Origin: a virus | Taxonomy: Duplodnaviria > Heunggongvirae > Uroviricota > Caudoviricetes | Length of the DNA: 14,363 bases | Strand: one strand, 5' to 3' | Virus record (IMG/VR): IMGVR_UViG_2681813233_000009 | Shown here: one piece after another, positions 1 to 14,106 of the stretch | How the letters are laid out: each line of letters opens with the position of its first letter | Position numbering within the stretch: position 1 is the first letter of the stretch | The notes under the pieces: model-generated | Told to the model about the DNA's origin: nothing | Database searches by the model: none | The model's input: the letters and a program-made list of their open reading frames with translations, nothing else | Made by a program: the position numbers and the translations under genes

Positions 1-20
1 TCTGGATAATGCCAGCGTAG
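1..20. repeat. attL-side copy of att core (direct repeat; may extend left of the window)
   Basis: Identical to 14033-14052; sequences diverge immediately 3' of ...gcgtag (tcgtggcg here versus ggaagtca at the right copy). Confidence 0.7.
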
Positions 21-107
21 TCGTGGCGATTATCCTCATATAAATCAAAAGATTATTGCTCCTTTTCGTCCCGTATTGTTCAGCCGTAACACATTGAGGC
101 TCTCCAA

Positions 108-1463
108 ATGGGACACAAAACCATACGCCACACCATTAAACGTAACGGAATCTATTACGTTCGCTTCCGTCTGCCTGATAACAAGTTTTTCCGTAAGTCT
201 TTAGAGACTGACAGCCACACCCAGGCGCAGTTGCTCATGTCTTTTGCTTCTCCTGTAATCCCTCTGGTTCAACGTGGAACCATTCACCCGGATCAGTTTT
301 GTCAACGTCTTTCTGATTTCAGCAACCGCTTAAAGCAACAGAATGAACACTGGCTGGTTCAACAATTTCTCAGTGATGAACGGCGCAATCTTCAGCCGAT
401 AGTTGTTCAGGAATACCGCGAGGTTGTTGCGCCTTCAGAAGATGAGGAAGAACAAACAGAAGCACAGTCAAAGGATGTGTTAACACTGGCTGGCGCTTGG
501 AATATGTACAAAAAGGAAAAAGCCCAAAACTGGACGAAGGCAATTTCACAGGCCAATGAGCGCTTTATGGAAGTCATGTTCATTGTCGTGGGTGCATCTA
601 AAGATGTAACCACGATTACCAAGCAAGACATTAAACAGGTAATGGAGGTTGTTGAAAACTTGCCTAAGCGTGTTGTACAGCCTTACCGTTCGATGACGGT
701 TCAGCAACTGATCGAGTGTGATGATGTTCCGCCTGAAGATTTGGTTGGCGCTGAGTCTATCCACAAGCATTTGAAGATTTACAAATCGTTGTTTAAAACC
801 TTCCTGACAGACAATAAAGATATTCTGGAGAAGTCTCCGACTGATGGAGTGGTCGCCTCACCATCTAAAGCAAGGTTTGGTGCATATAGCGCAGCAGAAA
901 TGAGAAAGTTTGTGGGGTGGGCGCTCAAGCAGCCTGACGGGTGGCAGAAGTGGATCACTTTGCTGTTGGCGTACACGGGAGCCAGAAGAGGGGAGATCGC
1001 CAAGCTGGAGAAATCACAGATCAAATTTGATGAAGATAGCCAGCGGCACTATCTCCTGATCGCGGAAGGAGGGCAGGGTAAAACCGAGAACGCTACAAGG
1101 CAGGTGGCGATCCATCCCAAACTCATCGAGTGGGGGTTCCTCGAATTTGTAAATCGCCAATGGAAAGAGAAAATCTTCTCGCCTGTGTCGGGTAAGAACA
1201 TGCCGAAGATCGGCAAAGTTTTAGCCGATGTCCGCGATCAGCTTGGTATTCCGTACCTTGATGATTATGGGCAGCGGCGGCTAGTTCACAGTTTCCGGCA
1301 TACCATGATTTCAACCTGTTTAGCAGGCTGGGTTGGTAATCTGGCACACCTGCAACAGGTGGTAGGCCATGAGAAAAGCGGTTCAGGGATCACTAGACGC
1401 TACCTACACACGTTCCCTTTATCAACGATCTGTTATGTGATTGATGGGTTGGGTTGGGAATAG
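108..1463 (+). CDS. int: Tyrosine site-specific integrase (phage integrase family), 451 aa
   Basis: ATG at 108 with GAGG 8 nt upstream; C-terminal catalytic motifs readable in the translation: ...TGARRGEIAKL... (Arg), HSFRHT (His-x-x-Arg), VGHEKSG (His), TRRYLH (Tyr nucleophile); sits next to the att repeat. Confidence 0.9.
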   Translation: MGHKTIRHTIKRNGIYYVRFRLPDNKFFRKSLETDSHTQAQLLMSFASPVIPLVQRGTIHPDQFCQRLSDFSNRLKQQNEHWLVQQFLSDERRNLQPIVVQEYREVVAPSEDEEEQTEAQSKDVLTLAGAWNMYKKEKAQNWTKAISQANERFMEVMFIVVGASKDVTTITKQDIKQVMEVVENLPKRVVQPYRSMTVQQLIECDDVPPEDLVGAESIHKHLKIYKSLFKTFLTDNKDILEKSPTDGVVASPSKARFGAYSAAEMRKFVGWALKQPDGWQKWITLLLAYTGARRGEIAKLEKSQIKFDEDSQRHYLLIAEGGQGKTENATRQVAIHPKLIEWGFLEFVNRQWKEKIFSPVSGKNMPKIGKVLADVRDQLGIPYLDDYGQRRLVHSFRHTMISTCLAGWVGNLAHLQQVVGHEKSGSGITRRYLHTFPLSTICYVIDGLGWE

Positions 1464-1523
1464 CTGTTTATTAATAAAAGAAAAGCATTAGAAATATTTC
1501 CTTTAGTAAGTTTTTGGGTATCA

Positions 1524-1544
1524 TTCGCCCCGTAATGGGGCGAA
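1524..1544. terminator. Hairpin between the convergent int and cargo genes (possible weak bidirectional terminator)
   Basis: 8-bp stem ttcgcccc/ggggcgaa (1524-1531 with 1537-1544), loop gtaat; no clear U-tract on either strand, so function is uncertain. Confidence 0.3.
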
Positions 1545-1555
1545 ATCAAAACTAG

Positions 1556-2578
1556 CTATTCGGAAGTGACTTGGCTTTGCTTTTTTATCGTTCTGGTTTT
1601 CAACATTTCAATCTGGCCAGCTTCGGTTAATGACCAGAAAGTATTCATGCTGCCATTGGTGGTTTTTAAATATTCAATTTTTATCAAACCATATGCCCTA
1701 AATTGCACTCCTATCGTTTTAAGGTCTTGAGAAGATACTTTTGCTGATGTGCCTCCCTTGCCTGCGACCTTTTGAGCGCTTTTGGCAATTGTGTATGATA
1801 CGCTTGATTCAGTATAATATTGAGTGAGATAGGGGGAGATTGAGTGAAAAATATCCTTCCATTTCATTTTCACGGACCAGTGTTTTGTTCCACCGGGATC
1901 ATACCCGATTCGAGGAAAGGTGGACTCACATCTAAATTCAAAATCATCATCAAAGTCAGCCAGATCCAGATCAAGTGTTTGACTAAGATTACTTGTGGCC
2001 TTGGCTAGTTCACTTTTTAACCATTCATTCTCTTTTTGTAAATCAACCATAGCCCGTAAATCAGTTTCAGAAGACGTTAGGTTGGCTCTTACCCATCCGA
2101 TTGCTGGATAAGTTTTCATCGTTTTACTCATACTTAAAGCAACCAACCCGGGTAAATCTTTGGCTGTTGCCCATGTTTTCCTGAGACGATTGGTTGAGGC
2201 CTTCTCTATAAATGCAGCTAGCTTCTCTCTGAGTTCAGAATCTTTTTCAGATTTGGCTAAAGGTAGATTTTCCGGATTCTCATGTACCAAAACAACGACG
2301 CGTAAACCTTTTGAAACTGCGTAATCGAATTCCTTTTCCGTGTAACTTAAACCATCTTCCGCGACAGAGCCATAACGACCACCAATGATCAGCAGATAAT
2401 AATCACAGTCATCAATTACTTTTTTTATGAACTCCCATTGGCCTTCATCGATTGCTGGGAACAACTCCATGCCTGCTGGAATGCAATCCATTTCCATCAG
2501 AGTTTGTATGACGTGTTTTCGTTCTTCTTCTAAATCCGTAAAAGTTGAACTTACGAAAACCTGGTAACGTTTATCCAT
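1556..2578 (-). CDS. Cargo protein, 340 aa, with N-terminal DUF4062-like motif ([16 protein letters not shown]); candidate defense or abortive-infection protein
   Basis: ATG at 2576-2578 (minus) with AAGGGA RBS; uninterrupted 340-codon ORF; visibly more AT-rich than neighbouring genes; N-terminal FVSSTF-DL-EER motif matches my recollection of the DUF4062 family; central coiled-coil-like segment ([28 protein letters not shown]). Domain assignment not verified by HMM. Confidence 0.8.
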
Positions 2579-2584
2579 TTTTAT

Positions 2585-2616
2585 CCCTTAAAAGAGGAAG
2601 GGGCATTAGCCCCTTC
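2585..2616 (-). terminator. Putative intrinsic terminator or attenuator between the small Cys-rich ORF and the cargo gene
   Basis: 8-bp GC-rich stem gaaggggc/gccccttc (2597-2604 with 2609-2616), loop atta; on the minus-strand RNA it is followed by CCUCUUUU, which overlaps the RBS of the downstream cargo gene. Confidence 0.4.
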
Positions 2617-2624
2617 ATTCAACA

Positions 2625-2891
2625 TTAACCAGCGTGACGGTAGGATTCACGCACACCATCACGATAACCATCAGCGAACGCTGCTTGAGGACTTTTGTGG
2701 CGAACGGTTCCCGCCTGGCTATCAGGTAAGGCGGCTAAGTCTACCCAAACCTGACCCGTGCGAGCCAAGCCAGCGCGGTAACCCTGATCGTAAGCGCAGC
2801 CGCAACATTTATGGCGACCTTCACCACCTTGATCGTGAGGTAAGCTGATGAAAAGAGTATTGTAACGGTGTGACTGTTTACAAATGGTCAT
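2625..2891 (-). CDS. Small Cys-rich hypothetical protein, 88 aa (MTICKQSHRYNTLFISLPHDQGGEGRHKCCGCAYDQGY...)
   Basis: Internal ATG at 2889-2891 (minus) preceded by a strong AAGGAG RBS at 6-nt spacing; the longer track ORF (to 3014) has no RBS. GC-richer than the adjacent cargo gene. No family recognised. Confidence 0.5.
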   Translation of the reverse strand: MTICKQSHRYNTLFISLPHDQGGEGRHKCCGCAYDQGYRAGLARTGQVWVDLAALPDSQAGTVRHKSPQAAFADGYRDGVRESYRHAG

Positions 2892-3571
2892 GCAATGCTC
2901 CTTATGAGCGTTCATTTTAAGGTTTACATGATCCTCTTTGCCTGGCACAATCAAGCCGTCAGAAATGAAGGCAAGGCTAAGATTCATACGAGTTTGGCGA
3001 CTCCTATTGGTCATGCTTTGTAAGCCGGGTTCGTGAAAATGAATCCGGTTTTTTTATGCCTAAAAATCAGGCATGGCACTACATGTGGGGGTGGTCAATC
3101 AATGGTGGCCCCACATAGACGATATTCTAGTGATGATTCTTTTCTGCACAAGGGTTGATTTTGACGTTAAATTGAGGTTGTGAAAGGGTAAAAATGCAAA
3201 ACCCTGCACAGCATAAGGCTTGGAAGACATGTCAATGATTAAGAAAAAAAAATCAAAATTTGATCGAGTGCTGATTTCTTCAACGGGAGGTCAGAATTGC
3301 GCGACATGATGTCGCGTAATCTTTATAAGAATAATGAATGGCATTAGTCGTTTTTGATGGTCTCTTGTAACATATAGTTAACATATAGATGTTCGTGAAG
3401 GGAGAAAGGCGCGAAAGGTAAATGTTATCTGGATAGTCTACCAATGCCTGTACCAGTACGAAAAGAGCGCTAATCATACCGAACTTAATCTCATAAAGGT
3501 TTTCACGAGAGCGAAGGACGTTAACGCTAGATTGCGAAACGAAACATTTCATTCTCTTCAATCTTTGGGTA

Positions 3572-3610
3572 ATAAAAAAGGCTGACCCGTTAAGGTCAGC
3601 CTTCTTAAAA
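3572..3610 (-). terminator. Rho-independent terminator ending the minus-strand capsid operon (bidirectional-looking)
   Basis: 8-bp stem ggctgacc/ggtcagcc (3580-3587 with 3594-3601), loop cgttaa; A-run 3572-3579 on plus (U-run after the stem on the minus RNA); ttctt follows on the plus strand. Confidence 0.6.
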
Positions 3611-3622
3611 TCAATGTGTTAC

Positions 3623-3811
3623 TTACTTCTTTTGACGCTGTTTAGCGATCATAACGTTAAGCGCGTATTCAAAACCGTGTTGCGATTCCAAACGGCTAAA
3701 CGTCACGTTACACAGGCCCAACTCTCTACACAGTGCTTTACGGTTTACGACCTCCGCCGCGCCAGATACATAGACTTGACCAGCGCCGGGGATATTGATT
3801 GAAACTTTCAT
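3623..3811 (-). CDS. Hypothetical small protein, 62 aa, last gene of the capsid operon
   Basis: ATG at 3809-3811 (minus) with GAGGTG upstream; co-directional with the capsid gene and followed by the terminator at 3572-3610. The overlapping plus-strand ORF 3614-3802 lacks this context. Confidence 0.45.
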   Translation of the reverse strand: MKVSINIPGAGQVYVSGAAEVVNRKALCRELGLCNVTFSRLESQHGFEYALNVMIAKQRQKK

Positions 3812-3903
3812 GTGTCACCTCAAAAATAAAAGTAAAAATGAATATAACCGGAAGAGATAACCCCCAGCCGATACCCAAAGGGCGCGACCGGGGGCATTCT
3901 CTA

Positions 3904-4923
3904 TTACTTCAGCTTGACGTTCAGCATGTAGTTCGGGCGCAGGTTCAGAGGAATGAAGCTCGCCTCTTGGTGAACGGTCACCATGCCGTAACGGTCAGTC
4001 ATTACTTTTTGGTAGTAAGGGCTGATCACACCTTTAGCGGAGATATCCTGATTACGTGAAGCCGGGCCGCGTACCAGTTTGAACGGGTTACGATCCGCTG
4101 CACTGAACTTTGGAACGAACAGGCCGGAACCTGCCGCGATTTCGTAGCGGTCATCGTCCGCCAGAATGAAAGTAATGTTGCCAATGCTGAAGGAGTCATA
4201 ACCCGCAGTGTTAACCGGGATCAGAGCGCCTTTTGCAGCCTCCGCCACTTTGTTGGTGATCAGGCTGGTTACTTCTGGGTGGCTCGCCAGAACGTCATAC
4301 AGATCCGGGGAGCAGAAGCAATAGAAGCGGTCCAGATAGGAGCGGCTCGCGCCGTACTCTTTAACCAACATGCGGCGAATCTTCGCAAGCTGTGCATAGA
4401 CGTTAGCGCCTGCTGAACCGTCGAGGTCGAAACTCAGCGGAGCAGTACCAAACACAGCGTTAAAATCTACGTCGCCGTCATCCGTTTTAGCCGCTTTCGC
4501 TTCCTGCTTGAACAGGGCGCGGGCCAGTGTGCTTTCAACTGTTTCCAGATGATAGTTACGCATACGGATAGCTTTATCAGCAATAACAGATGTGATCGCC
4601 TGAGCCTGATCCGGGTTAGCCGGGCTTACCAGGCCTTGCCAGTCAGCGGTTTTTACATCCGCCTCAGTGGCATAGTGTGGGATCTCCTGGTTACGCAGGA
4701 TGGTTTTATCCATCATGATCGCGTTAACTTCGGTGCCATAGCGGGCAACCTGCTCCAGTTCACTAACCTGAGTTTCCACAATATCCACAATCTGGGCGTT
4801 TGGAGTGGTTGAGTTAACATCGGAGAAGATACCCAGATCAGAGATCAGGTAATTACCTGCTGGTTGATCTTTGATCGCCGCTACAGTGTCCAGCTTTTCA
4901 AACTGTTTAAAATCAATAGCCAT
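3904..4923 (-). CDS. Putative phage major capsid protein, 339 aa (family not verified)
   Basis: ATG at 4921-4923 (minus), AGGAA RBS; starts 12 bp after the stop of the upstream small gene (small-gene/capsid-gene arrangement as in lambda D-E); A/D/S/T-rich composition typical of virion proteins. Capsid assignment is by context and gestalt, not by alignment. Confidence 0.6.
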   Translation of the reverse strand: MAIDFKQFEKLDTVAAIKDQPAGNYLISDLGIFSDVNSTTPNAQIVDIVETQVSELEQVARYGTEVNAIMMDKTILRNQEIPHYATEADVKTADWQGLVSPANPDQAQAITSVIADKAIRMRNYHLETVESTLARALFKQEAKAAKTDDGDVDFNAVFGTAPLSFDLDGSAGANVYAQLAKIRRMLVKEYGASRSYLDRFYCFCSPDLYDVLASHPEVTSLITNKVAEAAKGALIPVNTAGYDSFSIGNITFILADDDRYEIAAGSGLFVPKFSAADRNPFKLVRGPASRNQDISAKGVISPYYQKVMTDRYGMVTVHQEASFIPLNLRPNYMLNVKLK

Positions 4924-5437: not shown

Positions 5438-5467
5438 GAAGAGGGCGGCATCCGCGCCGCCCTTTCT
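5438..5467 (-). terminator. GC hairpin with flanking U-rich tracts upstream of the capsid operon (possible leader terminator)
   Basis: 7-bp stem gggcggc/gccgccc (5443-5449 with 5456-5462), loop atccgc; tttct follows on plus, and tcttctatt follows on the minus RNA; lies about 135 bp upstream of the decoration-gene start. Confidence 0.4.
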
Positions 5468-6551
5468 AATCTGGCTCTCTCTCACCCTCGCGGGTGGGGA
5501 AGGATATTTATCCTTTTGTGTGGATACTTGCCGCCCCTGGTGGCGTCACGTCGAATAGCACCAACCTTTTGGCAAATACCCACAAAAAAGAACCCGGCTG
5601 GAGGAACCGGGGTGGACAATGTAACTTACTGTATGATCACTTGTTTTCCTGTGTAGCCTCAGAGCCTTACATGATTTGCTTTCATGGTTCAGCAAAGAAG
5701 CCACAGAGGAAAACGGGCACCCTGAACGCGCCCGGAAACCATCGACGCAAATCAATAGTTTATCGTTGAGACCAGGTAACCAGCCCGGCCCAACTGTGAC
5801 CCCGTGGAGGGTCGATACAATTGAAGGAGATTCGCTTGTATTCTGAAGAGCCGCAGTTAGCGACGCTTTAGAATAGGGCCTGTGGCGCAAGCACTATGAT
5901 TAGAGGCGTTTTGAATCGTAGGAGTGAAACAATCGGCGGAACTTGAGGAGAGGACCGCACACAAAGCATTCTGGCAAGTGGAGTTGAAAGAACACTTTGG
6001 GTGAGGGCCGGGGCGGGGGAGAAGCCGCCCGGCTCACTCAGTACAGATCCTAATTGCACACGTTGCGACTCTGTACAGGTGGGGGGCGTGACAAGCTGCA
6101 AAACGGTAATTTCGATATCCTCGCCACACCCCACACCATGTATATTAGTTTAACACGAATGATTATCATTTGCAATAAAAATTAATTGCATTGTGTTGAG
6201 TCTTATGATATTGGCGGCCACACACGTGACGGATCAGATCTGCATTAATTTTTATTAGTGAGTGGTCTGACTCAGGGAGGGCTATGTGTCCCAAAAGACA
6301 CACGAAGTAATAATAGATATATAAGACCTCGCTACGCTCGCCCTCCGGGTCCGTCTTATTGATCTTATATAATAACTTCATTCAATAACTAATTGTTTTC
6401 ACAATTAATCATTTCATTCGTTATTATATGATCTTAAAACCTTCTCGCCCTTTGGGCTTACCAGGTTTTAGGCCGGGGCCTATTTCCCCACAATGTAGAG
6501 TCTCGCCTGTGTGGCTCATCTCCCGGGGGGCATTTTGAAACAAGGGTGTAC

Positions 6552-6612
6552 TGACAAAATGTCACAACGTGTTATGACAGATTGGCACAACGTGTTATGA
6601 CAAAATGTCACA
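6552..6612. promoter_or_regulatory. Cluster of dyad-symmetric repeats (operator- or iteron-like)
   Basis: 17-mer cacaacgtgttatgaca occurs twice (6563-6579 and 6586-6602), 6 bp apart; 15-mer tgacaaaatgtcaca occurs twice (6552-6566 and 6598-6612); each unit is itself a near-palindrome (TGACA-aaa-TGTCA; TGTCAcAACG/tGTTaTGACA). Confidence 0.5.
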
Positions 6613-7052
6613 TAATAAGATAAGTATATAAAACACCCTTAAAAGACAAACACCTAGGGCCAGGTCAAGATCTTAAAGAGATTGAGGGTGAATTATTGAT
6701 TGAACAATCAAGAGATCAGACTCTTTAGGAAAGAGCCTTACAGGCTCGCCTCCCTTTTGGGGCAATCGCAGAAACAGAAACCGCAACGCGGTTTTCTTTT
6801 CTGCTCTTTGGGAACACCGGAACGATGTGAAGGTGACATCTGGGCGGCGGGGTGGGGTGCCCGGCGCGGAGTGATACACAGTACAGAACCACAACCCACA
6901 GGAACCAACCTAAACGCGCCTCTGTGGCGCTCTCTCATATGCAGACACGGAAACACCTTATAAACACCCTGCGCCTCACTGAGAGCGTTACAGCGGCTTT
7001 CTATGCCTCTAGCACAATAAACAACTGAGCGCAAGATAAATCAAGAAAGTTG

Positions 7053-7081
7053 TTGCGAATCATTGTCAAATAGTGTAAAAT
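7053..7081 (+). promoter_or_regulatory. Candidate sigma70 promoter for the plus-strand operon
   Basis: TTGCGA (7053-7058), 17-bp spacer, TAAAAT (7076-7081), about 75 bp upstream of the ATG at 7156. Read by eye only. Confidence 0.3.
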
Positions 7082-7155
7082 AGATACTGTGATGAGGTAT
7101 TTATTCGAATATATAGATCCCCATCATACTATAACAAACATGAAAGGAGATTGCA

Positions 7156-9495: not shown

Positions 9496-9870
9496 ATGCA
9501 CCCCTTTGAACTACTGAAACGCCAGCTTGACGAAATGGCGAAATCCCGCCAGGTAGAGCAGGCCCAAGAGGAAGCCGCCGCCCGTGAACTCCGCAAGGCA
9601 CAGGCCGATCTCTCCCTGGACGAGGCTATTGCTCTGTACGGTACACAGTTGGAAGCCTCCACCGATGCAGCAGACAGCGCCCAGAAGGGCCGCGCCATTA
9701 AGAGCCGGGGAATTGCTCTGTGTCACAAGGATCAGGGATTCAGCGCCAACGGTCGCCCTGTGTCTCTCCTGACCAAATCAGCAGATCTGCCAGCAGGTCA
9801 CCGCCGGGTAATCATCAACAAAGCAGCAGGGCGCACCCTGAAGGCTATCAATCTGGAAGGGGCTGAATAA
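9496..9870 (+). CDS. Hypothetical protein, 124 aa, translationally coupled to the tape-measure-like gene
   Basis: ATG at 9496 with AAGGA RBS; its stop overlaps the next ATG (TAATG at 9868-9872). Confidence 0.6.
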   Translation: MHPFELLKRQLDEMAKSRQVEQAQEEAAARELRKAQADLSLDEAIALYGTQLEASTDAADSAQKGRAIKSRGIALCHKDQGFSANGRPVSLLTKSADLPAGHRRVIINKAAGRTLKAINLEGAE

Positions 9871-11990
9871 TGAGCGGTAACGTCATCATCACGAAGACCG
9901 TAAACAGAACTACGTTCACCACGGACGGGGCCAGCTATAAGAAGACGGTTGACCGTATCAAACAGGTGGGGAAAGAGTGGGATAAAGTCTCCTCTAAAAT
10001 GAAGCCTCTACGGATGAAATTTGAGGAAAACGCCTACACCAAGATCCGCCGGAAACAGCAGGACGCCACCGCAAAAGCAGCACTGGCAGAAGCCAAAGCC
10101 AAAGCCGCAGCGGAAGCCAAAGCGGCAAAAGCCCAACTAGCAGCGGAGCGTAAACTCCAGACAATCCGCGCTAAAGCTATTCGCTTTAATACCGCAGCGG
10201 CTAACGCCAACGTTACCCCGGCCCAACGTGCTGGACACCTCCAGGAGTTTGGACAGCTTACGCGCCAGTATCACGCCGGGTCTATGGCATTACAGGAATA
10301 TAACGCCCGTGTGTCACGCCTTCAGCAAACCATGCGCCAACAAGGCCGGGTAGGCATGAGGGGAGCCACAATTCCCGTAACCGCCAAAGTAAACAAACTG
10401 GATACCTCCATGATCGAGGGTGCAGGCGGGGCGATCACAATTGCCGCCACTGTGGCACTCTCCGGCAAGATCATGACTACCGGACAGGATTTTGAATCCG
10501 CTATGTCTGGTCTTACAGCGATCACCGGTTCCACAGAAAAAGCCGGGAAAGAGTTTGATTATCTTCGTGAACAGTCCAACCGTCTGGGGCTGGACCTTCT
10601 GAAAACTTCAAAAGACTATACGCAGTTTGCCGCCGCTGTTGGGGACAAACTCCCTAAAGACCAGATGCGATCCATCTTTGAGGGTGCTTCAGAGTGGGGC
10701 CTTGTTACTGGTGCATCCGCAGATGAGCAATCACGTGCGTTAAAGGCCCTTAACCAGATGATGTCTAAGGGTACGGTCATGAGTGAAGAACTTAAAGGCC
10801 AGTTGTCCGAGGCTCTCCCCGGCTCTGTGGGTCTGTTCGTTAAAGCCCTTAACGACATGAAAGGCGTTACCAACCTGACCGAGCAAGATTTGTTTAAGCT
10901 GATGGAAGACGGGAAGCTGTTCTCTAAGGACATCCTCCCACATGTGGCTAAACAGATGAAGGAAGCGGCCCGGCAGGGTGGCGCACTTGATAAGGCGATG
11001 AAGTCCAACCGGGCATCATGGCAGCGCCTCAATACCAGTATGCAGAACGCTATGAATGTGTTTTTCACTTCTGGCTTCGGTAACTCCCTTACCAACGCTT
11101 TCGACTCAATCAGCGCCGCTATTGACGGATCTGGTGGAGCCTTTGAGATGTTCGGGCATATCGCCGGGAAAATCGTTGAAGGTGCCACAGATGCGTTTAC
11201 AGAGTTGCATGACACTGTGATCCTGACCTTCCGCATTATTGAGTATTACGCCGCCAAAATGGGGATCAGTGGGGAGCAGCTCAAAGCCTGGGGAGAAATG
11301 GCAGCATATGCCGCCGGGGTGGCTCTGTTCGCTGGCTCTGTTTACAAGTTGGGCGGGGCTTTCAAGTGGGTCCTCACCATGCTGAACCCTCTTACCAAGT
11401 TGTTGGGAGTCATGAAGGGGATCGCCGCTATTGGTGGCATTGAGGCCGCTTCTGAAGCTCTGAGCGACGGTAAGCCAGGTAAAGACGGCCAGCCGGGCAA
11501 ACCGGGAACCCCATCAAAGAACACCAAGCCGATCGGCGCGGGCCGTGGCGTTAACTTTGGCCTCCCGGCTATTATCGCCGCTGTATCTCTGAATGACCGC
11601 CTTGATCAGATTCAGGCAGACCCGGAAGCGTTTAAGCGAAAGGTACAGGAGAATAATGATCGGCCTACGCTGTGGACTGACATCATGGAAGCATTCTCCG
11701 GCAGTTGGTACGAAAAGCAGCAGAACGCAAACCAGCAGGCAGCACAGACCGCAGCACTCGATCAGACTGTTCGTGTTGCTGTTCCAACCTTCATCCCTCC
11801 AACCACAGCGACGGTTACAGGTGGCTACGGTAATCCACTGATGACGCCGCCAGCGTGGCTAAACCAGCCGCTAAACGTGAGCGTTAATGTGAAGGTGCAA
11901 GATGGACAGGTGAAAAACCTTGTGCAATCTGAGATTGAACGTAATGAACAGGCGGCATTTAACATGCTGATGCAGGGCGGGCCAAACTAA
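9870..11990 (+). CDS. Phage tail tape-measure-like protein, 706 aa
   Basis: N-terminal Ala/Lys-rich coiled-coil (AKAALAEAKAKAAAEAKAAKAQLAAERKL); central segment LKGQLSEALPGSVGLFVKALNDMKGVTNLTEQDLFKLMEDGKLFSKDILPHVAKQMKEAAR resembles the conserved tape-measure motif as I recall it; hydrophobic Gly/Ala-rich segments; collagen-like GKPGKDGQPGKPGTP; followed by a terminator. Confidence 0.8.
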   Translation: MSGNVIITKTVNRTTFTTDGASYKKTVDRIKQVGKEWDKVSSKMKPLRMKFEENAYTKIRRKQQDATAKAALAEAKAKAAAEAKAAKAQLAAERKLQTIRAKAIRFNTAAANANVTPAQRAGHLQEFGQLTRQYHAGSMALQEYNARVSRLQQTMRQQGRVGMRGATIPVTAKVNKLDTSMIEGAGGAITIAATVALSGKIMTTGQDFESAMSGLTAITGSTEKAGKEFDYLREQSNRLGLDLLKTSKDYTQFAAAVGDKLPKDQMRSIFEGASEWGLVTGASADEQSRALKALNQMMSKGTVMSEELKGQLSEALPGSVGLFVKALNDMKGVTNLTEQDLFKLMEDGKLFSKDILPHVAKQMKEAARQGGALDKAMKSNRASWQRLNTSMQNAMNVFFTSGFGNSLTNAFDSISAAIDGSGGAFEMFGHIAGKIVEGATDAFTELHDTVILTFRIIEYYAAKMGISGEQLKAWGEMAAYAAGVALFAGSVYKLGGAFKWVLTMLNPLTKLLGVMKGIAAIGGIEAASEALSDGKPGKDGQPGKPGTPSKNTKPIGAGRGVNFGLPAIIAAVSLNDRLDQIQADPEAFKRKVQENNDRPTLWTDIMEAFSGSWYEKQQNANQQAAQTAALDQTVRVAVPTFIPPTTATVTGGYGNPLMTPPAWLNQPLNVSVNVKVQDGQVKNLVQSEIERNEQAAFNMLMQGGPN

Positions 11991-12060: not shown

Positions 12061-12627
12061 TCATAACAGATCCGCTATTGAATATTTATCACTAAAATCA
12101 TCTACTTTGCGTTGTGTGGCCCCAATGTAATGAAGCGTACTGGATAACGATTTGTGCCCTAATGCTTTACTAATTACAGCTATATCCTCCCCATTGTCAT
12201 AACCAATCGTTGGTTTACTCTTCCTCATGCTGTGGGTCGAAAGATTCAGCCCCAGCTTTTCCCCGGCGTAGCTAATTTCCTCATGCAATTTGGAGCGGCT
12301 CACAGGTTTTCCCTTGCTCCTGTGGCTGTCCAACTGTAAGAGGTACACATTATCAGGGTTAGCCTCTCTCCGGGCCGCTATGATGCGTTTAGCGGTATCG
12401 GTAAGCCTCACCCGGACAGATTCACCCGTTTTCTGTTGGGACAGGACAAGGTGATCGCCTTTGATGTCGGCATAACGGATAGAGCGCAGATCCGACACCC
12501 TCAGCATTAATTCATAACCCAATAACCAGGCGTCACGGTACAGCGTCAGCCCCTTGCCCTGTTTGAGTAGCTCAACTGCTACCGCTTTCACTTCCTGAAC
12601 TGATTTACAGCCCTCTACGAAATTCAT
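12061..12627 (-). CDS. Small tyrosine recombinase, catalytic domain only (FimB/FimE-sized), 188 aa
   Basis: ATG at 12625-12627 (minus) with GGAGAG RBS; the track ORF begins at an upstream TTG without an RBS; motifs LRVSDLRSIRYADI (Arg), HSMRKS (His-x-x-Arg), LGHKSLSSTLHY (His and Tyr). Confidence 0.8.
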   Translation of the reverse strand: MNFVEGCKSVQEVKAVAVELLKQGKGLTLYRDAWLLGYELMLRVSDLRSIRYADIKGDHLVLSQQKTGESVRVRLTDTAKRIIAARREANPDNVYLLQLDSHRSKGKPVSRSKLHEEISYAGEKLGLNLSTHSMRKSKPTIGYDNGEDIAVISKALGHKSLSSTLHYIGATQRKVDDFSDKYSIADLL

Positions 12628-13020
12628 TCTGTACTCTCCAGAACCTAACTGTGATAAATTTTTGATCAAAAACAAGCACTTGTAAACGACAAAAATTATT
12701 AATTTTAAGTTGTGTCTTTTTAGTGAATTAAATCGGGTTTAATCGCGTTTAATGGCAGAGTAATGACCCGGCAGGGGAGGTAATGGGCTGTTTATGTGGG
12801 TAAAAGATGGTTGCTTAATGTACTATTACCACAAGACGGGTAAGGTGATTTGACTCCCTCAGTTCCTTTAAGCTACTGTATTTATGGGAAATTAATTATT
12901 GTTTCTTTATGGTGTTGCCTGGCAAATTTTCAGTTTACCCTCAAGAAAAATCCCCATCTTTTTTATTCTCCACATGAGAATAAATTTTGTTTGCAAATAT
13001 CACTCATTCTCAACTCCAGT

Positions 13021-13832: not shown

Positions 13833-13981
13833 GTGCCTGCCATTTATCTGTGGGTCACAACGTGAGACACAAACTGGGACACAGAGGATTTTTTAGGGTT
13901 GAGTCTTTGGCTTCCCGCTGGCATGATCCAGAACAGGGATTAACGGGACGTTAATCGCAAGCTTTTGATTTTGTTTTATTT

Positions 13982-14106
13982 GACTCGGGGTGCCCTTCTG
14001 CGTGAAGGCTGAGAAATACCCGTATCACCTGATCTGGATAATGCCAGCGTAGGGAAGTCACGGACCACCAGGTCATTGCTTCTTCACGTTATGGCAGGAG
14101 CAAACT
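13982..14106 (+). promoter_or_regulatory. TPP (THI-box) riboswitch of thiM: aptamer plus expression platform
   Basis: Sequence gactcggggtgcccttctgcgtgaaggctgagaaatacccgtatcacctgatctggataatgccagcgtagggaag matches the E. coli thiM TPP aptamer as I recall it (including the conserved CUGAGA element); it runs into the thiM RBS (aggag at 14096-14100). Confidence 0.9.
14033..14052. repeat. attR-side copy of att core, lying inside the TPP aptamer
   Basis: Identical to positions 1-20. Confidence 0.7.

Follow-up and report, generated by a model that had tools for sequence, protein, structure and literature searches.

Two kinds of single-gene anti-phage system described in 2026, Swarozyc and Evangelion, couple a DUF4062 domain to a second domain termed AUX. 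KpSwz, the Swarozyc protein of Klebsiella pneumoniae and the founding member of its family (PDB 10wc/11cq/11cv), causes abortive infection upon activation by a phage portal, and its DUF4062 domain is a TIR-like NADase (Osinski et al., 2026, bioRxiv 10.64898/2026.05.01.722283). Here we analyse the virus record IMGVR_UViG_2681813233_000009 (Caudoviricetes), a stretch of 14,363 nucleotides referred to below as the window, which carries a homologue of KpSwz beside its integrase gene (int). We call this homologue swz. Our comparisons make it likely, with good confidence, that the swz protein belongs to the Swarozyc family and functions as an NADase that aborts infection.

KpSwz works alone when expressed in Escherichia coli, and KpSwz and an E. 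coli homologue both protect E. coli against BASEL phages (Osinski et al., 2026). Upon infection, nicotinamide adenine dinucleotide (NAD+) drops; cultures collapse at high multiplicity of infection, and escaper phages are mutated in the portal. The portal of phage Bas14 activates the KpSwz NADase in vitro and binds AUX in a cryo-electron microscopy structure. AUX has a fold of the helix-turn-helix (HTH)/winged type that binds the portal, with W238 and Y239 at the tip of a hairpin buried in the portal as an anchor. E97 is required for both defence and NADase activity, and AUX is also required for defence. The same study placed DUF4062 between the TIR and NDT clans.

Evangelion comprises the proteins Eva01-Eva04, which are likewise DUF4062 and AUX single-gene defence systems (Ibarra-Chavez et al., 2026, bioRxiv 10.64898/2026.06.25.731849). 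Eva01 is a more remote DUF4062 protein that likewise aborts infection, with a loss of NAD+. Escapers from Eva01 map to RecA/UvsX-like genes, and several adenine-containing metabolites are perturbed. The Evangelion authors put Swarozyc in a lineage apart from Eva01-04 (Ibarra-Chavez et al., 2026). A third 2026 preprint renames the DUF4062 domain NIR (10.64898/2026.09.04.749371).

A phmmer search of the PDB with the swz protein returned one target, KpSwz (E=5e-108), with query residues 1-334 aligned to residues 2-325 of the 326-residue chain. Identity is 56.7% overall and is distributed unevenly: 81.8% over residues 1-165, 22.5% over residues 166-205 and 33.1% over residues 206-334. The AUX domain alone also matches the KpSwz AUX (BLASTP, E=5e-19, 30% identity). 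By these alignments, the swz protein is a full-length, collinear homologue of KpSwz in both halves. The N-terminal half matches DUF4062 (Pfam accession PF13271, E=1.7e-30, 105.5 bits against a cutoff of 24.7) from residue 6 to residue 87, which covers profile positions 1-82 of 82. An earlier, sequence-only reading of this DNA had recognised the DUF4062 motif, and the profile search bore it out.

Residues with known roles in KpSwz are largely conserved. The deposited KpSwz chain is an E97A mutant, and its alanine sits opposite Glu83 of the swz protein, which is invariant in 60/60 aligned homologues. The KpSwz residues that make autoinhibitory dimer and stalk contacts are all retained, mapping at an offset of 14 (R18 to R4, D16 to D2, D71 to D57 and W176 to W162). 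Among the 60 homologues, R4 and W162 do not vary, and at least 90% have D57. At the portal-binding hairpin, KpSwz Y239 corresponds to Y226, which keeps a tyrosine at the tip; KpSwz W238 falls in a gap and has no counterpart. The wing of AUX is 9 residues longer than in KpSwz.

An AlphaFold2 model built on a 60-sequence alignment (mean predicted local distance difference test score, pLDDT, 79.5) divides the protein into the same parts. The modelled effector consists of five strands (residues 6-11, 33-36, 60-65, 93-99 and 132-136) alternating with five helices (17-29, 45-56, 79-89, 114-128 and 141-156) up to residue 156. One long helix (171-198) follows, and it corresponds to the coiled coil that the sequence-only reading had expected. 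The C-terminal domain has a pLDDT above 90 across most of its length and begins with a beta-hairpin (212-239); helices and a wing come next.

Foldseek searches with the first half returned TIR domains (SPARTA TIR-APAZ, RPS4, AbTir, TIR-STING and ThsB) together with the NDT-like enzymes DNPH1 and BcmB. Both of the fold classes that the sequence-only reading had named for this check, TIR-like and nucleoside-processing, were thus among the matches. The last domain matched PadR-like winged-helix regulators (6abq, 9qbd and 3elk). The Foldseek PDB library ends in April 2026, so KpSwz could not be returned; a newer copy of the PDB was used for the sequence search. The modelled folds agree with the published description of KpSwz. 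DUF4062 was the sole Pfam match to the swz protein at E<=0.01, with no match to the TIR or TIR_2 profiles, and the TIR likeness of the model is therefore one of fold only, not of sequence profile.

In overall design, the swz protein resembles KpSwz in its length, in the order of its parts (DUF4062/TIR-like domain, helical stalk, then a hairpin and winged-HTH AUX), in the catalytic glutamate and in the tyrosine at the hairpin tip. Both are single genes on mobile DNA. The swz protein differs from KpSwz in its diverged stalk and AUX (22.5% and about 30-33% identity, respectively), in the missing anchor tryptophan and in the longer wing. Unlike KpSwz, swz lies in a slot next to the integrase of a satellite-like element inserted at the thiM riboswitch and, within its clade, has a gene for an 88-amino-acid protein upstream.

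The Evangelion core motifs F8, Q47-W48-E49 and S78-Y79-T80-E81-K82-E83 are present in the swz protein; among the 60 homologues F8, Q47, S78, T80, E81 and E83 are invariant, and W48 and Y79 occur in at least 90%. Single-gene core-plus-AUX logic and carriage on mobile elements are further common features, and the abortive infection with NAD+ loss reported for Evangelion is predicted here. In contrast, the swz protein has neither the short AUX of the Eva01 type nor membership in the Eva01 clade, and Eva01 is tied to phage recombination and replication functions, KpSwz to the portal. We identified 218 plasmid matches to the swz protein, 4 of which cover at least 80% of it, none from Staphylococcus. 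The 197 matches from Staphylococcus plasmids cover less than 80%. Plasmid matches listed at 50-59% coverage end at residues 170-201, which delimits the DUF4062 core. Because coverage stops at this core, AUX is not shared with the Staphylococcus plasmid proteins.

Canonical TIR NADases (Thoeris ThsB, SPARTA TIR-APAZ, TIR-STING and AbTir) have in common with the swz protein a flavodoxin-like TIR fold and a catalytic glutamate, and they rank among its top Foldseek matches. Their sequence of oligomerisation, activation and NAD+ depletion is predicted for the swz protein as well. The swz protein differs from them in having no TIR Pfam match and in sensing through a fused AUX rather than through a partner protein or a signalling nucleotide.

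The open reading frame (ORF) at 1556-2578 is a genuine gene and not a chance ORF, because records of the identical 340-amino-acid protein (UniParc UPI0007752655) exist from Enterobacter, E. coli and further Enterobacteriaceae and about 8000 homologues were scored. The 90% cluster of the protein contains 28 member sequences, with variants in Klebsiella, Phytobacter, Leclercia and Cronobacter. The motif AAGGGA lies 5 nucleotides upstream of the ATG. PHROG 15411 matches the full length of the protein (E=1.1e-106). A tblastn search of a phage collection gave only two weak N-terminal matches, both in one Acinetobacter phage record, so swz is uncommon among phage genes despite the PHROG match.

Profile libraries other than Pfam and PHROG had little to say about the swz protein. 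PADLOC-DB v2.0.0 (2023) contained 0 families matching at E<=0.01, and NCBIfam gave no match. These libraries predate the description of Swarozyc and Evangelion, which accounts for their silence, and the blanks are no evidence against a role in defence. The PADLOC check that the sequence-only reading had proposed used these 2023 models, which are older than the family. That reading had also called the C-terminal region unrecognised. At the level of libraries this is correct (no Pfam, NCBIfam or PADLOC-2023 match); by homology, the region corresponds to the AUX of KpSwz.

Variation within the family is concentrated in the sensor. The 120 best homologues come from Enterobacterales, Vibrio, Shewanella, Alcanivorax and Stutzerimonas. 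Their N-terminal halves are 65-100% identical to that of the swz protein, and their C-terminal halves are 27-50% identical in most cases while still aligning over the full length. Column entropy, averaged by region, is lowest in the TIR-like domain (0.68 bits) and higher in the stalk (1.97), the hairpin (2.48) and the winged-helix core (1.69). The highest 10-residue block (3.10 bits) spans residues 221-230, the hairpin tip. A constant effector joined to a divergent C-terminal half is the pattern expected for a sensor under diversifying pressure and would be consistent with an arms-race signature.

A search with AUX alone against 1.84 billion representative proteins identified 279 matches at E<=1e-3, mostly Swz-sized proteins of about 330 residues or fragments. 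One 490-residue protein (P0147) contains a response-regulator receiver, a canonical TIR_2 domain and a C-terminal domain homologous to the swz AUX (E=4.9e-16). The sensor module of Swarozyc is thus found joined to a different TIR-type effector as well.

Features of the window and their coordinates (position 1 is the first nucleotide of the window)
Feature	Position	Strand	Description or basis
swz-like gene	1556..2578	-	340-amino-acid ORF, ATG start, stop codon 1556-1558; predicted DUF4062/TIR-like NADase, stalk and AUX sensor
TIR-like (DUF4062) effector domain, residues 1-160	2099..2578	-	Model, Foldseek, KpSwz identity
Glu83 codon, counterpart of KpSwz catalytic E97	2330..2332	-	Alignment to E97A chain
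Linker and helical stalk, residues 161-205 (helix 171-198), with invariant W162 (KpSwz W176)	1964..2098	-	Model, alignment
AUX sensor domain, residues 206-340: beta-hairpin 212-239 and winged helix-turn-helix core	1559..1963	-	Model, Foldseek, BLASTP
Hairpin tip, residues 221-230, counterpart of KpSwz portal anchor W238/Y239	1889..1918	-	Entropy, mapping
Variable cargo slot: swz, 88-amino-acid gene and 0.68-kb AT-rich leader	1466..3574	.	Comparison with L001; GC 41.4%
GC-rich hairpin followed by CTCTTTT, between 88-amino-acid gene and swz start	2597..2616	-	Terminator scan; terminator-like, possibly an attenuator (function inferred)
88-amino-acid gene upstream of swz	2625..2891	-	Within ORF 2625-3014; likely start Met42 (position 2891), AAGGAG 6 nucleotides upstream
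Tyrosine integrase, 451 amino acids	108..1463	+	Pfam Phage_integrase, 30 bits (cutoff 27.1); annotated integrase in sister elements
Left attachment (att) repeat, inner 20 nucleotides	1..20	+	Exact repeat of 14033-14052, 0 expected by chance
Right att repeat	13982..14052	+	Inside thiM TPP riboswitch aptamer
thiM TPP riboswitch	13976-14072		Rfam RF00059, 74.8 bits, full-length match

The swz gene is integrase-adjacent cargo. It is transcribed on the minus strand and converges on int, on the plus strand, with 92 nucleotides separating the two stop codons. Its GC content is 40.1% (35.8% at third codon positions, GC3), compared with 47.6% (GC3 52.0%) for int, 49.9% for the rest of the element and a GC3 of 57.6% for the capsid gene. 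The sequence-only reading had described the position, the orientation against int and the AT-rich, foreign composition, and all three were upheld.

Comparison with a sister element (L001) defines the slot that holds this cargo. L001 matches window positions 1-1465 and 3575 onward at about 89% and has an OLD-family nuclease in between. We place the bounds of the slot at 1466-3574 because the backbone matches L001 on both sides and the stretch between them differs. The fragment 1470-3600, which the sequence-only reading had suggested as the native unit to clone, coincides with this mapped slot. In this window the slot contains swz and the 88-amino-acid gene. Related elements carry the OLD-family nuclease (L001, L023 and L033; PADLOC Old, E=1.3e-45), a GmrSD-domain endonuclease (L030), an HNH endonuclease (L031 and L032) or unrecognised proteins (L024 and L029). 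Cargos of the last type are sets of 2-4 hypothetical proteins, and that of L024 has no Pfam or PADLOC match. Judged by these contents, the slot after the integrase is a defence hotspot.

The integrase family is carried by 136 of 5,426 complete E. coli genomes (about 2.5%). A megablast search of the same genomes with the cargo slot did not find the swz allele, and the region of the 88-amino-acid gene alone gave matches. With more sensitive blastn, a DUF4062 relative was detected in 10 of these genomes, over the N-terminal part only and at about 71% identity.

Work by Rousset and colleagues in 2022 reportedly described variable defence hotspots in P4 satellites and P2-like phages. The swz slot is similar in its fixed position next to a conserved gene of the backbone (the integrase in this case) and in the exchange of alternative defence genes between similar elements. 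It differs in its backbone, which encodes integrase, major capsid, TMP_3 and Phage_phiTE_211 proteins and is inserted in the thiM TPP riboswitch.

Homologues of swz also occur in other mobile settings. We identified an int-swz-88-amino-acid gene module in Enterobacter that is 94% identical and sits on a different backbone (L003). In Pectobacterium (L011/L012; 7298-9207 of L011), swz and a small upstream gene lie beside thiM/thiD, with int reduced to its last approximately 90 nucleotides; the cargo appears to have been kept after the element decayed. The homologues of Serratia and Pantoea adjoin integrases, and those of Vibrio and Stutzerimonas lie within integron-like cassette arrays. The survey of homologue neighbourhoods that the sequence-only reading had called for thus found stand-alone genes in mobile and defence contexts.

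From its repeats, the window is an integrative element of 14 kb that has inserted into the thiM thiamine pyrophosphate (TPP) riboswitch, between rcnR and thiM. The full att repeat is 71 nucleotides long and starts 51 nucleotides before the window, as measured on an E. coli draft assembly (L004) that matches the window at 100% identity over 12.6 kb and reaches further left. The 71-nucleotide repeat and its overlap with the riboswitch thus locate the insertion. An intact TPP aptamer is retained before thiM, but the sequence upstream of it is now element-derived. RefSeq annotates a TPP riboswitch also at the left junction of the sister elements L029-L032.

The genes of the element encode the integrase (to which NCBIfam gives weak recombinase matches), a major capsid protein (Phage_cap_E), a weak HDPD-like decoration protein, replication-initiator-like and DNA-binding proteins, a TMP_3 protein and a second, short integrase. 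No portal or terminase gene was recognised among the scanned ORFs of the element. By its gene content, the element is satellite-like, and dependence on a helper is proposed on the same ground.

Several further features of the element were observed. The TMP_3 ('tape measure') protein (706 amino acids, 9870-11990, plus strand) is accompanied by no other recognisable tail genes in the element. The short tyrosine recombinase (about 190-204 amino acids, 12061-12675, minus strand) lies near the right end, and the 1.3 kb between it and the right att site may be the remnant of a tandem element. No convincing ORF occurs in the roughly 1.7 kb (5450-7150) that separates the capsid module from the rightward genes. 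This region includes three 21-nucleotide direct repeats (GTGTTATGACAAAATGTCACA-like) at 6546-6612 with 23-nucleotide spacing. Operator or iteron-like sites are one possible reading of the repeats; another is that the region encodes an RNA. At the right edge of the cargo slot, a strong stem-loop with a T-run (AAGGCTGACC-TTAACG-GGTCAGCCTT-TTTT) occupies 3572-3603 on the minus strand, after a 62-amino-acid ORF (3623-3811), and marks that edge; the terminator scan omitted it. An Rfam scan of 1400-3700 by e-value gave a sole, sub-threshold match, HrrF at 3574-3661 on the minus strand (29.9 bits against a gathering score of 77). This match overlaps the stem-loop and is probably a spurious product of the terminator hairpin.

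The 88-amino-acid gene lies within a longer ORF (2625-3014), whose true start is probably Met42. PHROG 3941 matches residues 43-122 of the long ORF (E=8.7e-29), and other genomes annotate an 88-amino-acid product. The protein contains cysteine and two GYRxG-like motifs. An identity with RMF was considered and rejected, as the match was confined to a 12-residue motif (E=0.024) below the Pfam cutoff; no family was assigned.

We found the 88-amino-acid gene directly upstream of swz in three contexts. Relative to the window, identities of the 88-amino-acid protein and Swz are 100% in E. coli/Enterobacter, 79% and 86% in Pectobacterium, and 68% and 66% in Rahnella. The gene was not beside the Swz homologues examined in Serratia, Pantoea, Erwinia, Vibrio, Shewanella and Stutzerimonas. 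Copies of it unaccompanied by swz are found in E. coli L002 and in P2-like phage 520873, where the gene lies between partition genes and the portal gene. On this distribution we treat it as a frequent neighbour of swz rather than a required partner. The hairpin between the two genes has positional counterparts in Pectobacterium, Enterobacter and Rahnella; the Rahnella stem differs in sequence. A TTGACA near 3230 was rejected as a promoter for want of a well-spaced -10 element.

A mechanism for the swz protein can be proposed from KpSwz. In the resting state, head-to-head dimers or higher oligomers, held together through the TIR-like domain and the stalk, would keep the active site shut. Upon infection, the C-terminal winged-helix AUX would bind an assembly of a phage-made protein, which in KpSwz is the dodecameric portal. 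An array of AUX domains around the portal would realign the stalks and place the TIR-like domains in an arrangement that is active. The resulting collapse of NAD+ would leave the infected cell unable to support phage growth. In this way swz probably protects its host, and the element itself, against competing phages. Because the sensor half has diverged strongly while the effector is nearly the same, the swz allele probably recognises a different set of phages from KpSwz, or conceivably a different phage protein.

Several points weigh against this account, in particular against its trigger. The AUX shares only about 30% identity with its KpSwz counterpart, lacks the anchor tryptophan and has an extended wing, and the KpSwz trigger cannot be transferred with confidence because of these differences. 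Eva01 shows that DUF4062 systems can follow replication and recombination functions instead of the portal (Ibarra-Chavez et al., 2026). Because the contact hairpin is changed and other cues are used by Eva01, we put the chances that the portal triggers this swz allele at roughly even. Protection is also not uniform among described proteins: 3/5 Swz homologues assayed protected less than the Klebsiella and E. coli ones (Osinski et al., 2026), and Eva02 conferred no protection (Ibarra-Chavez et al., 2026). The allele UPI0007752655 is not among the five Swz proteins assayed by Osinski et al. The TIR-like half was modelled with moderate confidence (pLDDT 56-82 in 10-residue blocks). As to expression, a promoter scan of 1400-3950 found no sigma-70-like promoter on the minus strand, and the terminator-like hairpin stands 18 nucleotides before the swz start codon; that swz is transcribed by attenuated read-through of this hairpin is a guess.

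The first alternative to weigh keeps the Swarozyc chassis and the NADase output and changes the trigger, to a capsid or packaging protein or to a replication or recombination intermediate. We regard this as a real possibility, though clearly the lesser one. The divergence of AUX (30-33%) and stalk (22%) from KpSwz would fit it, as would the missing W238, the longer wing and the position of the hairpin tip as the most variable block of the family. Escapers from Eva01 in RecA/UvsX-like genes offer a precedent, and the winged-HTH fold of AUX is often one that binds nucleic acid. However, AUX is homologous to that of KpSwz over its whole length and retains the hairpin and its tyrosine, divergence focused on a contact hairpin is also expected from the tracking of variable portals, and no data point toward any specific alternative trigger. 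A change of substrate rather than of trigger is very unlikely. The DUF4062 domain would then act as a nucleoside or nucleotide N-glycosidase (DNPH1-, BcmB- or NDT-like) or in the synthesis of a signalling nucleotide. This idea draws on the fold search, in which DNPH1 and BcmB (a CMP N-glycosidase) appeared together with TIR domains, on the place of DUF4062 between the TIR and NDT clans, and on the several adenine-containing metabolites perturbed by Eva01. Against it stand the NADase activity of KpSwz and the conservation of its catalytic glutamate as Glu83.

Two further alternatives concern the neighbourhood of swz. The directly adjacent 88-amino-acid gene, with its matching divergence in three contexts, could encode a regulator, antitoxin or co-sensor of this Swz clade, which would make the locus a two-gene unit. 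We consider this unlikely, given the absence of the gene beside Swz homologues in six other genera, its occurrence without Swz in E. coli L002 and the P2-like phage, the terminator-like hairpin between the two genes and the sufficiency of KpSwz alone in E. coli; its patchy co-occurrence with Swz gives an obligate partnership a low probability. It is also quite unlikely that swz mainly serves the element, either as an addiction or stabilisation toxin or by interference with helper or rival phages. The 14-kb carrier, which has a capsid gene and no recognisable portal or terminase among its scanned ORFs, would need a helper phage, the int-swz-88-amino-acid gene module moves between backbones (L003 and the window), and a portal sensor would be well suited to discriminating phages. 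However, the Pectobacterium islet has outlasted the decay of its element, and homologues sit in integron-like arrays without a satellite, both of which suggest that the gene is of benefit apart from the element. No antitoxin partner is evident, and the satellite behaviour of the element is itself predicted from its genes. The reading that accounts best for the locus remains an NADase of the Swarozyc family that aborts infection.

The sequence-only reading had proposed an anti-phage or abortive-infection role, and full-length homology to the experimentally characterised KpSwz makes this the best reading of the gene. Its suggestion that no characterised system has this architecture, and that swz might be an undescribed single-gene system, has been superseded by the 2026 descriptions of DUF4062 and AUX proteins as Swarozyc and Evangelion. 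By homology and context, swz is a further allele of this kind of defence, in a clearly defined variable hotspot.

These observations turn an apparently unrecognised cargo gene into a confident functional prediction, that of an NAD+-depleting abortive-infection protein from a family that 2023 defence libraries miss. Unrecognised cargos in the same slot of other E. coli strains are candidate new defence systems. A capsid-bearing element with no portal of its own would be packaged through the portal of its helper and would for that reason need to tell the helper from others. It is thus imaginable, if rather unlikely, that the diverged hairpin and AUX, possibly together with the 88-amino-acid protein, discriminate the portal of the helper from those of competitors. 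If so, the locus would offer a natural setting in which to study how a 'self' helper and its rivals are told apart by a Swarozyc sensor; it may alternatively reveal a trigger other than the portal. The combination of a near-unchanged effector with a heavily diverged sensor would make the swz protein a useful comparison with KpSwz for mapping the residues that determine AUX specificity.

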